Positions 60,211 through 63,966 of a stretch of 64,000 bases of DNA are shown here, piece by piece. Numbering within the stretch: position 1 is the first letter of the stretch; each line of letters opens with the position of its first letter. This DNA comes from Candidatus Zixiibacteriota bacterium (GTDB lineage: Bacteria > Zixibacteria > MSB-5A5 > GN15 > FEB-12), in NCBI GenBank assembly GCA_040752815.1, contig JBFMGC010000003.1, positions 15,706 to 79,705 of the forward strand. The letters run 5' to 3'. The notes below the pieces were generated by a model, which saw only the letters and a program-made list of their open reading frames with translations, searched no databases and was not told the origin of the DNA. Both the position numbers and the translations under genes were made by a program.

Positions 60211-60879
60211 CTACCGCCCGCCGTGCCTTGCCGAGGCTATCGCCTCGAGCAACTGCTCCTTGTTGGCAATTGAGATCTGCCGCCCTTTGATCGGCAGGTC
60301 GGCGATCGTGCGCGCATAGCGGCGCAGCTTCACGACCGCCATCGCCTCGAGTTGCTCCCAGGTCGGCCGCCCCGATGATGGCGCCAGCTGAGGAGGCACG
60401 CTCTTCAGTGCCGCCGGCGTTGCCTGTGATGCAGCGTCAGGAGCGGTTGGCATTGCGGCCGGCTTGGCACGGACTTTGGGTTGGGGAGTTGATGTCGTTT
60501 TCGCGCGGAGGGGGGTGCGTGGCACAGACTGCTCTCTCGCTTTCCGGAGCGGAGCAGGCGCTGCAACCTCAGGGATCCCGCCCGGGCGGTACTTTCCGAC
60601 AAAGCGTGGATACGGCAGGATCGCAACGACTTCGTCGTCCGACTTGGGGATCACGTGCATCGACACCAGCTCCCCGGCCGTATGCGCGGCCCGTGCTCCG
60701 GCCTCGACCGCACCCTGCACAGCGGACCAGTCGCCCTCGATCTTGACCGTCATCCGCCCGGCCGCGCCCTGCTCCGCGGAGACTATGACCACCTGTCCGG
60801 CATCCGATGCCGCCCGGGTTGCCGCGAGAGCACCGTCGATTCCGCTCGTTTCGATTAGTCCTAGCGCTGGTCGTGGCAT
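60211..60879 (-). CDS. BMC-H (Pfam00936-type) shell-domain protein with Pro/Ala/Lys-rich linker and C-terminal helix-extended-helix (Rho_N/SAP-like) domain
   Basis: Residues 4-90 (ALGLIETSGIDGALAATRAASDAGQVVIV...GRMTVKIEGDWSAVQGAVEAGARAA...GELVSMHVIPKSDDEVVAILP) are collinear with PduA/CcmK/EutM. The C-terminus is WEQLEAMAVVKLRRYARTIADLPIKGRQISIANKEQLLEAI. Confidence 0.8.
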   Translation of the reverse strand: MPRPALGLIETSGIDGALAATRAASDAGQVVIVSAEQGAAGRMTVKIEGDWSAVQGAVEAGARAAHTAGELVSMHVIPKSDDEVVAILPYPRFVGKYRPGGIPEVAAPAPLRKAREQSVPRTPLRAKTTSTPQPKVRAKPAAMPTAPDAASQATPAALKSVPPQLAPSSGRPTWEQLEAMAVVKLRRYARTIADLPIKGRQISIANKEQLLEAIASARHGGR

Positions 60880-60956
60880 GATCCGCGAATTTACATCGAG
60901 GGATGCTCCGTTTCAACTTAATAATCTGAACGGCTTTCGGCGGGCCACAAAAGAGT

Positions 60957-60987
60957 GTCGCCCGTGCACCCCTCAGGCACGGGCGAC
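60957..60987 (-). promoter_or_regulatory. strong hairpin in the 5' leader of the BMC gene (attenuator/terminator-like)
   Basis: GTCGCCCGTGC-ACCCCTCAG-GCACGGGCGAC is a perfect 11-bp stem. On the minus strand it is followed by ACTCTTTTGTGG. It lies between the sigma-54 promoter candidate and ATG 60879. Confidence 0.35.
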
Positions 60988-61058
60988 TGGGCACCAAGAA
61001 AAAGAGGACCTACCGAGCGCCTTGTCAGCGCCAGGAGTAAGAATGACGGACGGTATTG

Positions 61059-61074
61059 AGCAAGGGTCATGCCG
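61059..61074 (-). promoter_or_regulatory. sigma-54 (-24/-12) promoter candidate
   Basis: The minus strand reads CGGCATGACCCTTGCT, against the consensus TGGCACG-N4-TTGCW. The GG and GC dinucleotides are correctly spaced and the core has one mismatch. It lies about 180 nt upstream of the BMC gene start and downstream of a sigma-54 activator gene. Confidence 0.5.
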
Positions 61075-61180
61075 CAGGATTGGTCCTGACGGCTAACCGT
61101 AAGTTCCCCAGCTTGTTACGCCGACAGACTGAATCGGGTACGTCGAGACTCCACCGTCCCCTTCGTATGAAAATACGAAA

Positions 61181-61231
61181 CTGGATCGAAAAGAAAGGCG
61201 GTAAGCGCTTGACCGGTAAGCACTTACCGCC
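61181..61231 (-). terminator. intrinsic terminator candidate for the sigma-54 activator gene
   Basis: GGCGGTAAG (61197..61205) pairs with CTTACCGCC (61223..61231). On the minus strand it is followed directly by TTTCTTTTCGATCC. It lies 64 nt past the stop at 61295. Confidence 0.45.
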
Positions 61232-61294
61232 ACCAAGGAGGGTTCAGTGATTTCGTACGGACTAACGAAACGGTTCTGACAGACCGTACTCGTC

Positions 61295-63565
61295 TTAATC
61301 GGGCATGCTGCCCTCCAGGCTGATGCCGTACCGTTTCAGCTTGGTTCTTACGGTCGCTTCGTGGATGCCGAGTATGCGGGCGGCCTCGCTCTTGTTGCCG
61401 CCCGCCGCGAGCAGCGCCTCGGTGATCAGTTGCCGCTCGAACAGCTCCACCCGCTCAAACAGCCCGGGGGAGTGATCCGCCGCCTGCTCGGGGGACAGAA
61501 TCGAACGGACCACTTCGTGGAGTTGTCCGTCGGCCACCGACTGCGACATGAGCGAGAGCCGATTAATCACGTTGTCGAGTTCGCGAATGTTTCCCGGCCA
61601 GTCATGCGCCAGGAATTGCTGAACCAATTCGGGCGACACTCTTTGCTGCGGCCCGAGCAGTCCGCGCTTGCGCGTGAAGTGCTCGACCAGAAGCGGGATG
61701 TCTTCCTTGCGCCGGCGCAGCGGCGGCAGGTGGAGCGTAATGCCGCTCAGGCGATAGTAGAGGTCGCGGCGGAACGTACCTTGCTCGACCATCGCTTCCA
61801 AATCACGGTTGGTCGCCGCTACCAGGATGATGTCGATCTCCACCTGGCGGGTGCTTCCCAGCGGCGTGATGCGGCGAGACTCCAGCACGCCCAGCAGCTT
61901 GGCCTGAAGGCCGAGTGGGAGATCACCGATTTCGTCGAGCAGGAAAACTCCGCCGTTAGCCGCTTCGAACAGACCCGGCTTGTTGTGGTCGGCGCCGGTG
62001 AACGCTCCCTTGCGGAAACCAAACAGCTCGGATTCTAACAGATTCTCAGGCACCGAGGCGCAGTTTACTGCCACGAACGGACCGTCCGGCCGAACCAGCG
62101 AATGATAGTAGCGGGCGAGATGGTCCTTGCCCACACCGGTTTCGCCGGTAATCAGCACCGGCAGATCGGAGCGACTCAGCAGGGGCAGTTGCTTCTTTAT
62201 CCGCTCCAGCGCGGGGCACCGGGTCAGATAATCGAACTCGCTTCGGTTTGTGACCGCCGCCGACGATGAACTTTCAGCGGTGAACCGTCCCAGGGCGTTG
62301 ATTAGACGGCTGATTTCGTCCTGCTTGTTCCTGATTCGATTGCGCGAGTAAAACTCCTCCGCGCGGAACAGGTAGGTCAGCCTCTGGCGCTCGGTGAACA
62401 CCGGCGATGATCCCGCGGCAGTCAGGGCCTCGGCTTTCTCCCAGCGCACGCCGGATTCGTCGAGGATATCGATAGCGCGCTGGAACAACTGGCGGGCCTC
62501 AGCGGCCTGCCTTTCGCCGAGATCGTCGGAGTTGCCGGTTGTTACCTGCGCCATGATCTTCTTAAGCGCGCCCAGTTCGACACGTTCGTCGACCCGCTCC
62601 ATGATAACCGTAGCGCGCGCGGCTATCTTCCGCGCCAGGCGGAAGTCGCCGGTGCGCACCGCCAGCTCCGCCAGGTGACGCATCACCCGACCGGCCAGGG
62701 TGGTTCCGGGTGCAATAGTCTCGGCCTTCGCCAGCGCCTTGCGCAGGACGCTGCCGGAGAGATCAAACTCGCCGGTGCGATACTGCAGCTCGCCGAGATA
62801 GGTGAGATAGATGACCTCGTCGCGGGGCGAGTTGACCGCGGTCAGGAGAACGCCGGCTTTGCCGAACATCTCTTCGGCGTGCTCGAACTCGGCCTGCTGC
62901 AGGTAAACGTAGCCGAGCGAGAGCTGCGCCCGCATGGTCTCGAGATCATCGCCCAGATCGGATGACATCTCGATGTTGATTAAAAGGTGCCTCTCGGCCT
63001 CGGCAAAGTCGCCCATGAAGGTGTGCAGGCGGCCGATATTACCCATCATGAATGCCAGTTTGCGGCGGTCATCGAGCCGACGCGCGATCACCACCGCGTC
63101 CATCAGCACCGCCAGGGCGTTGCGATAGTCGGCGAGGCGGAAATACAGGCCGGCCAGATGATTGAGCGCCCGGCTTTGTCCTTCCGGGCAGTCGTTTCGT
63201 CTAAAGATCGATTCTGCGTCGCGGTACGCCTTTTGTGCTTCCGCGAGCTCACCCCTGTCACGCAGGATGCCGCCCAGGGTGACAAAGACCTCCGCCAGCA
63301 TCAGGGAGTCGCCGGCTTTGGTCATTAGCGCCTGGGCGAGACGCGCCGCCTTAAGGGCGGCCGTGTAGTTGGTGAGGGAAGCATAAGCCTGGGCGGCGAG
63401 GTGGAGAATTTCCCCGACCTCGACTGACCCGACCTCAGTGGCTATCTGGCTCTGCTGAGCCTCATAGCACTGCACGGCGCCGACAAAGTCCCGCCTGGCC
63501 AAAAGTGTGCGCATGTGCGCGGCGGCCGAGACGCAGAACGCCTTGTCTACGTCGTGTCGGTTCAT
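61295..63565 (-). CDS. sigma-54-dependent transcriptional activator with N-terminal TPR sensor region (no receiver domain)
   Basis: The N-terminal ~400 aa are TPR-like repeats. The AAA+ core has Walker A GETGVGKDHLA and ESELFGFRKGAFTGA (GAFTGA). The C-terminus has a Fis-type HTH, GGNKSEAARILGIHEATVRTKLKRYGI. Confidence 0.9.
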   Translation of the reverse strand: MNRHDVDKAFCVSAAAHMRTLLARRDFVGAVQCYEAQQSQIATEVGSVEVGEILHLAAQAYASLTNYTAALKAARLAQALMTKAGDSLMLAEVFVTLGGILRDRGELAEAQKAYRDAESIFRRNDCPEGQSRALNHLAGLYFRLADYRNALAVLMDAVVIARRLDDRRKLAFMMGNIGRLHTFMGDFAEAERHLLINIEMSSDLGDDLETMRAQLSLGYVYLQQAEFEHAEEMFGKAGVLLTAVNSPRDEVIYLTYLGELQYRTGEFDLSGSVLRKALAKAETIAPGTTLAGRVMRHLAELAVRTGDFRLARKIAARATVIMERVDERVELGALKKIMAQVTTGNSDDLGERQAAEARQLFQRAIDILDESGVRWEKAEALTAAGSSPVFTERQRLTYLFRAEEFYSRNRIRNKQDEISRLINALGRFTAESSSSAAVTNRSEFDYLTRCPALERIKKQLPLLSRSDLPVLITGETGVGKDHLARYYHSLVRPDGPFVAVNCASVPENLLESELFGFRKGAFTGADHNKPGLFEAANGGVFLLDEIGDLPLGLQAKLLGVLESRRITPLGSTRQVEIDIILVAATNRDLEAMVEQGTFRRDLYYRLSGITLHLPPLRRRKEDIPLLVEHFTRKRGLLGPQQRVSPELVQQFLAHDWPGNIRELDNVINRLSLMSQSVADGQLHEVVRSILSPEQAADHSPGLFERVELFERQLITEALLAAGGNKSEAARILGIHEATVRTKLKRYGISLEGSMPD

Positions 63566-63966
63566 TATCTCGCCTCCCGGAGCAGTCTGTTACGTGCCGA
63601 GAACGACGCCTTCTCGGGTCGATAGCCCGAGCCGGCGCCGCCGCTCTGTGCCGCAGTCTGAACCGTGCTTTTCGGCTGACTAACGGCGGTTTCAATGGTC
63701 GCGCCGATCAACAGCGAGTTCACAAAGATGTCGATCGCCGGATAACCTGTGACTATCGCGAGGCGATAGGTCTGTTTGGCGGCGATACCGCCGCCGTCCG
63801 TTATCTGATCACCTCCCCACGGATGATCACCATCGTCGCCTTCGCCCCCGCCGGTCAGGCCTGGGTTGTTTACACCTTCGCCGCGGATCACCCCCGCCGG
63901 GGCGGTCACCGCCATGGCGAAAACCAGCGCCAGCACAAGAGCCGGCACCATGTACGAATGTTTCAT
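63565..63966 (-). CDS. small secreted hypothetical protein (Gly/Asp-rich), translationally coupled to the activator
   Basis: It has the signal peptide MKHSYMVPALVLALVFAMAVTAPAG. Its TAA (63567..63565) shares one nt with the activator ATG (63565..63563). Confidence 0.5.
   Translation of the reverse strand: MKHSYMVPALVLALVFAMAVTAPAGVIRGEGVNNPGLTGGGEGDDGDHPWGGDQITDGGGIAAKQTYRLAIVTGYPAIDIFVNSLLIGATIETAVSQPKSTVQTAAQSGGAGSGYRPEKASFSARNRLLREAR

Follow-up and report, generated by a model that had tools for sequence, protein, structure and literature searches.

A sigma-54 activator cassette with a predicted structured RNA next to a lone BMC-H fusion gene in Candidatus Zixiibacteriota

Organization of the locus

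The stretch of DNA analysed in this work (hereafter the window) comprises 64,000 nt from Candidatus Zixiibacteriota bacterium (assembly GCA_040752815.1, contig JBFMGC010000003.1, positions 15,706 to 79,705, forward strand). On its minus strand it carries a gene for a small, putatively secreted protein, a gene for a sigma-54 enhancer-binding protein (EBP) with tetratricopeptide repeats (TPR), and a single gene for a bacterial microcompartment (BMC) shell protein of the BMC-H class fused to a C-terminal domain (CTD). Two upstream palindromes (UAS), a predicted sigma-54 promoter and a conserved structured RNA lie between the activator and the BMC-H gene. A first-pass annotation of this DNA had described the three genes, a terminator-like hairpin and a −24/−12 element as a self-contained module in which the BMC-H gene was under dedicated enhancer-dependent control. 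Its coordinates were correct for every listed element and its observation was confirmed, and its interpretation was partly supported. The features of the activator unit, down to the promoter, are as follows.

63565..63966, minus strand: gene for the small protein, 133 aa, identified as an open reading frame (ORF) with a TAATG overlap with the EBP start
61295..63565, minus strand: gene for the sigma-54 EBP, 756 aa, identified by Pfam and as an ORF
61251..61270, no strand: UAS1, a candidate activator site with the palindrome TTTCGT-N8-ACGAAA, located in the 3′ untranslated region (UTR) of the EBP gene
61187..61247, minus strand: EBP terminator, a hairpin of 14 bp (61231..61197) with a U-run, shared by about 28 of 37 distinct loci
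61161..61180, no strand: UAS2, with the palindrome TTTCGTAT-N4-ATACGAA(G), at a distance of ~90 bp from UAS1
61059..61074, minus strand: predicted sigma-54 promoter CGGCATGACCCTTGCT, −24 GG at 61073/61072 and −12 GC at 61061/61060

The translational coupling of the small ORF to the activator gene was verified, the stop codon of the former and the ATG of the latter sharing base 63565. The small protein is made up of an N-terminal signal-peptide-like segment, an acidic/Gly stretch, an amphipathic segment with the pattern TG-x3-[ILV]-D and a disordered tail, and contains an invariant [DE]HPWGG[DE] motif; searches of this protein against Pfam and NCBIfam gave no match. Its orthologues (n = 34) show the same layout, with stop codons located at +3 to −24 nt from the estimated EBP start. 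In the case of the EBP, the Pfam domains agreed with the annotated receiver-less TPR-AAA+-helix-turn-helix (HTH) architecture: TPR_12/TPR_MalT (aa ~30-400), Sigma54_activat (PF00158, 203 bits), AAA_lid_14 and HTH_8 (48 bits) were identified, the C-terminal HTH being of the Fis type, and no receiver domain was found by Pfam. The GAFTGA motif and the Walker A motif GETGVGKD are present in the translation. With a GAFTGA-containing AAA+ domain and a C-terminal HTH, the protein is a bacterial enhancer-binding protein; the NCBIfam models matching it were exclusively generic EBP models, every one under its cut-off, and its orthologues share 49-78% identity.

The module was found to recur at about 100 loci in Zixibacteria and in metagenome-assembled genomes (MAGs) of related FCB-group lineages. 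The order small protein, TPR activator, BMC gene was observed in seven of eight large-contig neighbourhoods, the eighth (L003) being broken by a scaffold gap. This locus (CP070824.1, labelled as a complete chromosome) had been a candidate for an EBP-less arrangement with a truncated RNA, which was rejected: a run of 100 N at 9749..9848 coincides precisely with the promoter and the start of the RNA, so that the apparent absence of the activator is an assembly artefact. Placement of the BMC family by 72 species-representative genomes gave Zixibacteria as the closest hosts, the others being 'Ignavibacteriales'-labelled MAGs, Calditrichota, GN15, Rhodothermales/Bacteroidota, Latescibacterota and Gemmatimonadota.

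Conservation of the sigma-54 promoter and the upstream palindromes

The −24/−12 element at 61074..61059 has the correct GG-N10-GC spacing. Its consensus GGCAY-N5-TTGCW was matched once in the 64 kb, with 0.44 matches expected and at least one match in 34 of 100 shuffles. This lone match is not significant by itself, so the case for the promoter is carried by the comparative evidence. In 37 of the 43 EBP-linked orthologous loci, a high-scoring −24/−12 element precedes the BMC start by 190-300 nt, and the GGCA and TGC of the promoter were invariant in 38 aligned loci. Among loci without a detected EBP, the element was present solely in L019, in which the EBP was not detected because the 1.2-kb contig is too short for its gene.

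Palindromes of the type TCGT-N8-ACGA showed a density of 5.45/kb in the 330 nt upstream of the RNA vs 0.021/kb elsewhere in the loci (81 in 45 x 330 nt vs 12 in 563 kb), which corresponds to an enrichment of ~250-fold. A UAS1-type palindrome was found at about −228 from the first modelled RNA base in 38 of 45 RNA-bearing loci, and the second palindrome of the loci lies at about −139 relative to the RNA. In the window, the centre of UAS2 lies ~105 bp upstream of the −24 GG. Agreement with the consensus TGGCAC-N5-TTGCW, conservation in orthologues and the presence of UAS 80-250 bp upstream are the traits by which a sigma-54 promoter can be recognized, and all of them were found for this predicted promoter, from which transcription would start at ~61048-61046.

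The terminator-like hairpin noted 3′ of the activator gene was also found, with 14 pairs followed by TTTCTTTT. Its sequence-conserved parts are the 5′ flank CTCCTTGGT and the lower stem GCGGTAAG/CTTACCGC. This conservation of sequence (CTCCTTGGTKGCGGTAAG...CTTACCGC-Tn) is odd for a terminator, while the upper stem varies. The hairpin sits between both UAS, with a 5′ flank similar to the CUUUGGUG motif found before hairpin P2 of the RNA described below. The conserved terminator could be a protein-binding site or part of a functional 3′ UTR.

A conserved structured RNA downstream of the promoter

Alignment of the region from the promoter to the BMC start revealed a core of ~105 nt with a conservation far above that of the sequence beyond it. 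The features of the structured RNA defined by this core, all of them on the minus strand, are the following.

60945..61050: structured RNA of ~100 nt, covariance model 91 bits, E 4.6e-21, sole match in the window
within 61050..60945: RNA 5′ end GUCAUUCUUACUCCUG, family form GUCAUUYUUACUCCUG
61035..61013: hairpin P1, from per-sequence folding
61008..60993: pyrimidine tract UCCUCUUUUUCUUGGU, family core UCUUUUCUYUUUGG
60987..60957: hairpin P2, GC-rich, with a GAGGGG loop; 12-14 bp in the family, loop invariant
60954..60949: U-run 3′ of P2

The covariance model identified exactly one copy per locus in 44 BMC-seeded loci and in 42 further loci obtained from a second search, which was seeded on the TPR domain of the activator in metagenome contigs (EBP-seeded loci); the copies were always on the sense strand and after the EBP gene. 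In P2, 97.9% of the cells were paired and 10 of 11 pairs exhibited compensatory double-sided changes, a level reached by 0 of 500 shuffles, and controls with slid partners collapsed. The structure was assigned to the sense strand because many of its pairs are G-U. Hairpin P1 was judged by folding each sequence, and it formed in 48 of 48 distinct sequences with quite different stems of a median 9 bp and with a median z of −2.4. On the model-fitted alignment, P1 pairs drawn by hand were only 49.8% paired, since the loop length varies. Gaps of 1-2 nt in the alignment argue against a conserved ORF in this region. A U-run followed P2 in 63 of 78 distinct RNA copies, and most of the others ran on into a further hairpin and T-run. 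The search of Rfam yielded no family matching the RNA, with two chance-level matches on the opposite strand (E 1.7 and 6.9).

An RNA sub-family without the U-run after P2 was observed in L030, L033, L053, L054, L111, L121, L124 and L131. In the copies for which the downstream sequence was read (L030, L033, L053, L054 and L131), an extra hairpin (e.g. GGCAGCATTTCAAAGGGCTCTCTGAAATGTTGCC) with its own T-run was present after P2, which suggests a longer predicted RNA isoform in some lineages of the full type (those with further shell genes, see below).

The RNA accompanies the activator rather than the BMC gene

The RNA was located 3′ of the activator in 42 of the 53 EBP-seeded loci searched. The promoter was retained, and sequence past it available, in 41 distinct EBP-seeded loci, and in 25 of them the BMC gene was found 420-760 nt past the EBP stop. 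On the other hand, 16 distinct EBP-seeded loci (17 as fetched) showed palindromes, promoter and RNA but no BMC gene, as judged on the downstream sequence available, usually ~4 kb. In these BMC-less loci the genes after the RNA are mutually unrelated (amino-acid permeases, sodium/solute symporter), and in L103 and L126 convergent genes abut the RNA directly. Moreover, in L039 and L052 the BMC gene is cut off from the RNA by a gene on the opposite strand (4838..5719 in L039 and 3742..4887 in L052, both on the minus strand); the RNA stays beside the activator. The intervening gene of these two full-type loci encodes a secreted caspase-like protein with the motif ...SGHGD...

Since the RNA persists without the BMC gene, the constant unit is formed by the small protein, the activator, the UAS, the sigma-54 promoter and the RNA, and from these comparisons the BMC gene appears as a frequent neighbour of this regulatory cassette. 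What remains of the proposed self-contained module is the conserved neighbourhood of all its listed parts; the BMC gene is separable from the activator/RNA unit. A promoter, a terminator hairpin with U-run, covariation and occurrence without a co-directional downstream gene were all found for the RNA, as would be expected of an independent small-RNA gene, and we predict it to be one.

The BMC-H gene, its own predicted promoter and its product

The features of the BMC-H gene, all on the minus strand, are listed below; AF2 stands for AlphaFold2 models and pLDDT for their predicted local distance difference test.

60888..60916: sigma-70-type promoter TTGAAA-17-TAAATT, from a promoter scan, ending 8 nt before the BMC ATG
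60211..60879: gene for the BMC-H-CTD protein, 222 aa (Pfam, AF2; 191 full-length homologues)
60879..60604: BMC domain, aa 1-92 (Pfam/AF2)
within 60211..60879: disordered Pro/Ala-rich linker, aa ~93-172 (pLDDT 53-62)
60363..60214: four-helix CTD, aa ~173-220 (pLDDT 91-97 for aa 174-220)

The BMC ATG lies 65 nt past the last modelled base of the RNA. A sigma-70-type element situated 6-9 nt before the ATG was kept in most orthologous loci, with the form TTTAC[TA]-N17-TAT[CT]xT for the full type and, in most loci of the lone type, TTGxxx-N17/18-TATxxT. Such an element abutting the ATG implies a leaderless or near-leaderless BMC mRNA. With an mRNA started at the gene's own promoter, any sigma-54 input would need read-through of P2, and this promoter, together with the gene intervening in L039 and L052, indicates that sigma-54 control of the BMC gene is at best indirect or exerted by read-through. 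The proposal of a dedicated enhancer-dependent control of BMC-H was therefore not sustained as stated, the predicted immediate product of the sigma-54 promoter being the RNA.

The assignment of a single BMC-H gene was well founded. PF00936 matched with 60.8 bits (cut-off 24.5), residues 5-79 corresponding to profile positions 1-74 of 75 in non-permuted order, and aa 1-80 of the BMC domain were modelled with pLDDT 91-98. Comparison of this domain by Foldseek with EutM, PduA, CutN and HO BMC-H gave TM scores of 0.79-0.89 at 36-50% identity, and a profile search of PDB gave E-values down to 1.6e-44. The PF00936 domain and the modelled alpha/beta fold place the protein in the BMC-H class. The basal facet-forming motifs D-x3-K/KAAN and (P/A)RPH (PMC8217296) were absent from the window protein, which shows R22-A-A-S-D26-A-G-Q and I-P-K-S-D at these sites.

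The CTD is the best-conserved region of the BMC-H-CTD family. Direct profile matches of this domain to Rho_N, SAP and HeH (PF07498, PF02037 and PF12949) were below threshold, the best being Rho_N with 18.8 bits vs 24.9, and no match was found among PDB sequences. The structure was taken from predictions for full-length database proteins; with the CTD modelled alone, the best geometric PDB matches were to the N-terminus of Rho (TM 0.60-0.64, root-mean-square deviation 1.6-2.3 A) and also to the SAP-containing FAN1. In a search of 1.84 billion representatives, 87 proteins with the CTD were retrieved, nearly all of them BMC-H fusions or fragments thereof. The few non-BMC matches include true Rho_N proteins, e.g. 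P0269, to which the CTD profile was aligned by hhalign with a probability of 96.3% and E 1.8e-9 over a region matching Rho_N at 62.9 bits. By this transitive link we class the CTD as a probable diverged Rho_N/SAP-type domain which, given this distant fold class, might bind nucleic acids.

Two other proteins, P0276 (1073 aa, phage tail tubular protein PF17212) and P0299 (700 aa, FliK-like), contain five to six tandem CTD-like motifs, which indicates that the motif is used elsewhere as a repeated module. The same CTD was also observed on a tandem BMC-BMC protein in L042, L060, L062-L064, L072, L074 and L075, from Bacteroidota/Rhodothermales MAGs. These tandem loci are devoid of the palindrome/promoter/RNA cassette; in L075, a distant EBP-like match (40% identity) is present downstream of the BMC gene.

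The EutK-type protein offers a parallel, its C-terminal domain being an HTH. In both proteins a BMC-H domain at the N-terminus is joined by a linker to a small helical domain, which belongs to a nucleic-acid-binding class. In contrast to EutK, the CTD of the window protein is related to the helix-extended-loop-helix motifs of Rho_N/SAP, the NCBIfam EutK model NF012010 reached 42.1 bits vs a cut-off of 218 and covered the BMC domain alone, and the genomic context lacks eut genes.

Lone and full loci

About half of the BMC-seeded loci are of the full type: 3′ of the BMC-H-CTD gene they carry genes for EutN/CcmL (BMC-P), for an Fe-S flavoprotein of PduS/RnfC type and for a tandem-BMC protein of 183 aa (PduT-like). 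The window belongs to the lone type, with no BMC-P, PduS-like or PduT-like gene within 6-10 kb; the closed genome OY760907.1 is also of this type. The earlier statement that no further shell protein or signature cargo lies nearby was substantiated: tblastn of the 64 kb, which are part of a contig of 132 kb, detected no second BMC and no EutN/CcmL, PduS-like or PduT-like sequence, and no cargo-type family was found by Pfam among the 26 predicted proteins from 31950 to 60086, whose families correspond to enzymes of lipid/EPS type (exopolysaccharide), AhpC, a transposase similar to IS200 and components of an efflux system.

The two types also differ in residues at the hexamer edge. The D22...K26 pair was kept in 27 of 27 BMC-P-linked members (DAAxKAAx), and it was missing in 14 of the 22 lone EBP-linked members. 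In the window, L001 and L004 the pair reads R22...D26, and in the window a K replaces the arginine of PRPH (PKSD). The R/D swap could leave tiling of the protein with itself intact and keep canonical hexamers from mixing in; alternatively, it could be a sign that the protein has been freed from its role in shells.

The 2021 BMC catalogue (PMC8217296, Supplementary Data 2) lists FRAG1 shell-only loci in Ignavibacteria and relatives, in which the BMC-H proteins carry an ordered C-terminal extension. Since such proteins have been catalogued, the protein class is not new. By the definition of the catalogue, a main locus comprises at least one BMC-P gene (PMC8217296), and no such gene was detected in the window. 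The same work reports that FRAG loci are scattered over <=6 genomic sites, lists shell genes of Zixibacteria as fragmented satellites, and describes FRAG-type loci in candidate phyla as having shell genes and no recognisable enzymes or regulators, with their function as an open question (PMC8217296). In this catalogue and its supplements the word 'sigma' occurs 0 times, and the activator, the small protein and the RNA are unmentioned (PMC8217296). Our literature search yielded no work linking BMC domains with sigma-54 or describing microcompartments of Zixibacteria.

Likened to FRAG1 BMC-H by the description in the catalogue, not by sequence, the window protein shares with it the long extension with an ordered terminal domain, the occurrence in FCB-group phyla and the enzyme-less shell loci, and a PduS/PduT homologue pair is often nearby in FRAG1, as in the full relatives of the window. 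On the contrary, a triplet of BMC-P and an additional, basal BMC-H are found in FRAG1, whereas the relatives studied here have one adjacent BMC-P and the window none. The BMC-H gene stands alone in the window, but it is not unprecedented, as shown by FRAG1 and by the sister loci in which the cassette precedes BMC-P, PduS-like and PduT-like genes.

Neighbouring genes

The neighbouring lower-GC islet on the opposite strand was found as annotated, at 59053..60086 (plus strand) with a GC content of 0.53 vs ~0.62 in the flanks. It contains three small ORFs (153, 101 and 77 aa), the first lipoprotein-like and the third membrane-protein-like, none of which matched Pfam or NCBIfam. The islet separates the BMC gene from an epimerase gene, and these two genes are just ~220 nt apart in L001, the closest syntenic locus; its absence from L001 indicates a lineage-specific insertion. 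The epimerase gene belongs to a conserved cluster (51911..58363) with the following members, all on the minus strand.

57335..58363: NAD-epimerase/dehydratase
56915..57301: 4′-phosphopantetheinyl transferase
55208..56911: AMP-forming ligase
54932..55183: acyl carrier protein (ACP)-like ORF, 83 aa, with DSF motif
53381..54628: alpha-oxoamine-synthase-type aminotransferase
51911..52654: short-chain dehydrogenase

This set is also found after the BMC gene in L001 and L004, and partly in L006. We take the cluster to resemble bacterial sphingolipid/aminolipid synthesis clusters (Spt, ACP, ACP ligase, reductase). A fragment of an IS200-like Y1 transposase gene (PF01797, 27 bits; 52716..53195, minus strand) is inserted within it, and in L009 a Y1_Tnp gene lies directly 3′ of the BMC gene.

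Genes of EPS type were observed around the module, namely a Wzz/GNVR chain-length determinant, an asparagine synthase and an AMP-ligase (window 37447..38958 and 31950..35580). In L001, exosortase EpsH/EpsI and Polysacc_synt genes are located upstream of the module (1765..3269). A Wzy_C (O-antigen-ligase-like) gene, also of EPS-type context, was considered as a core part of the module and discarded, as just 28 of 81 loci have it upstream of the small-protein gene and the closest relative lacks it there.

Discussion

Altogether, we consider it fairly probable that two units meet at this locus: a sigma-54/EBP cassette with a structured RNA as its output and, beside it, a separately promoted BMC-H/Rho_N-like gene. 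In the proposed mechanism, the TPR domain would sense a signal tied to the secreted protein encoded by the coupled gene, which might be a peptide cut from that protein, and the activator would bind the palindromes, probably as oligomerising dimers, and remodel the sigma-54 holoenzyme. The RNA would be a terminator-ended regulatory RNA acting on targets elsewhere, with the single-stranded 5′ end and/or the pyrimidine tract as putative effectors; its 5′ end would be antisense to CAGGAGUAAGAAUGAC, that is, a ribosome-binding site plus AUG. Some read-through may add a sigma-54 input to BMC-H expression. The BMC-H-CTD gene would be the lone form of a FRAG-like microcompartment locus that continues in sister lineages with BMC-P, PduS-like and PduT-like genes and, with hexamer-edge residues changed in the lineage of the window, its product may be restricted to tiling with itself or may no longer serve in shells.

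Several observations weigh against this interpretation. That the secreted protein is connected with the cytoplasmic TPR domain is suggested solely by the coupling of their genes. The sigma-70-type element is a mere match to a consensus that may not be the one used in these phyla, and the start site and the 3′ end are predicted. No transcripts of the window or its relatives were found: no sequencing run contained the window, and L001 and L008 were present in DNA metagenomes and not in RNA libraries. A conserved base-pairing target of the RNA was not found within the loci: in the local target search, the sole occurrence of the exact antisense of the RNA 5′ end was the RNA gene itself, and RNAduplex scans of every locus gave unrelated positions with chance-level energies. 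The E-values of the fold matches of the CTD are not significant on their own. Finally, the RNA and the BMC gene adjoin in ~60% of the EBP-seeded loci, often with a fixed −197 spacing, and this frequent adjacency would also fit a cis-acting leader.

It is possible, and we hold it tentatively, that the BMC-H-CTD protein is an ordinary satellite of a FRAG-type microcompartment whose remaining components (BMC-P, basal BMC-H, PduS/PduT) are encoded elsewhere in the genome, a reading compatible with the regulatory part of our explanation. The scattered FRAG loci and the satellite shell genes of Zixibacteria in the catalogue (PMC8217296) are in line with it, as are the BMC-P, PduS-like and PduT-like genes placed directly after the orthologous gene in sister lineages and the well-conserved, confidently folded BMC domain. 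However, no shell gene was detected in the 64 kb, nor in flanks of 6-10 kb around 22 loci of the lone type, and among the best 120 of 319 BMC-P-clade relatives none was traced to lone-type contigs, two of which are closed or near-closed chromosomes, although this is a weak check. Furthermore, the canonical D...K and PRPH tiling motifs were lost specifically in the lone clade.

A refined form of the original model, in which the sigma-54 promoter is the main promoter of BMC-H and the RNA is a cis-acting leader with P2 gating read-through, is in our opinion somewhat unlikely. It would account for the position of the RNA directly upstream of BMC in 25 of 41 EBP-seeded loci and in most BMC-seeded ones, with the −24 often at −197 from the ATG, and the RNA has traits typical of attenuators, namely a terminator hairpin with an invariant loop and upstream CUCC/CCUC tracts able to pair with that loop. 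A leader would not be expected, however, to persist with its promoter and UAS where the BMC gene is missing or convergent genes abut, nor to be separated from its gene by one on the opposite strand, as in L039 and L052. In addition, the sequence from P2 to the ATG is poorly conserved except for the sigma-70-type promoter, which would make a leader unnecessary, and a transcript reading through from the sigma-54 start would have no well-spaced Shine-Dalgarno sequence before the ATG.

We consider unlikely that the BMC-H-CTD protein of the lone clade has given up building closed shells and serves as a hexameric or sheet scaffold, with its Rho_N/SAP-like domain attached to nucleic acid, e.g. in nucleoid tethering or RNA binding. 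The CTD is the best-conserved region, is related to Rho_N/SAP and is almost confined to BMC-H fusions (87 of 1.84 billion), the R22/D26 swap is present in the subclade of the window, and no BMC-P is nearby. Nevertheless, nucleic-acid binding is suggested by a distant fold class alone, full-type loci with BMC-P, in which a shell role is likely, encode this CTD as well, and the R/D swap might preserve homotypic tiling. It would be distinctly improbable, in our estimation, that the RNA and the BMC-H-CTD protein are partners, with the Rho_N/SAP-like domain, held out by its flexible linker from a hexamer or sheet of BMC-H, binding the RNA (e.g. the pyrimidine tract or the GAGGGG loop). A chance origin of the −24/−12 match and the palindromes in GC-rich DNA, which the single-window result (34/100 shuffles) would have allowed, has a negligible probability and is refuted by the comparative data, given their positional conservation in more than 70 loci at 40-80% protein identity and the ~250-fold enrichment of the palindromes.

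EBP-driven small RNAs are known from other bacteria: LuxO controls the sigma-54-dependent Qrr RNAs in Vibrio, and crcZ lies directly downstream of cbrB in Pseudomonas. The CbrB-CrcZ system resembles the cassette described here in the order of activator gene, UAS, sigma-54 promoter and short RNA. Unlike CbrB and LuxO, the activator of the window has a TPR sensor in place of a phospho-receiver, and a translationally coupled secreted partner. The RNA is dissimilar to both CrcZ and Qrr, has no Rfam family, belongs to other phyla and is predicted from sequence alone. CbrB, which drives the small RNAs CrcZ and CrcY with sigma-54, binds non-palindromic subsites (PMC6296734), in contrast to the palindromic UAS of the window.

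In RRNPP signalling of Firmicutes, a cytoplasmic TPR receptor is encoded adjacent to the gene of a small secreted pro-peptide. The presence of a TPR regulator beside a small signal-peptide gene recalls this arrangement, a resemblance that serves as a lead only. The output in the window is a sigma-54 AAA+ activator and not an HTH protein or a phosphatase, and the small protein, of 110-150 aa, has an invariant internal DHPWGG and not a variable C-terminal peptide. Compared with these systems, the new elements are the RNA family, the TPR sensor with its coupled secreted DHPWGG protein, the palindromic UAS and the recurrent juxtaposition with a BMC-H/Rho_N-like gene.

These data provide a FRAG-like shell protein with a regulatory input, consisting of a TPR-sensor sigma-54 activator with a secreted partner and precise candidate UAS, and add to it an undescribed conserved RNA and a Rho_N/SAP-like class for its CTD. 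If the RNA and the BMC-H-CTD protein were indeed partners, the RNA activated by the cassette would load onto an assembly of BMC domains, nucleate it or regulate it, giving an RNA-associated microcompartment or scaffold, and this would be the first functional handle on enzyme-less FRAG-type shells. The passage from full loci (BMC-H-CTD with BMC-P, PduS and PduT) to lone genes with altered tiling residues represents a natural series useful for asking how shell proteins get repurposed. Independently of microcompartments, we know of essentially no riboregulation in Zixibacteria and related phyla, and the RNA is a candidate for a new family of sigma-54-dependent small RNAs in these bacteria.

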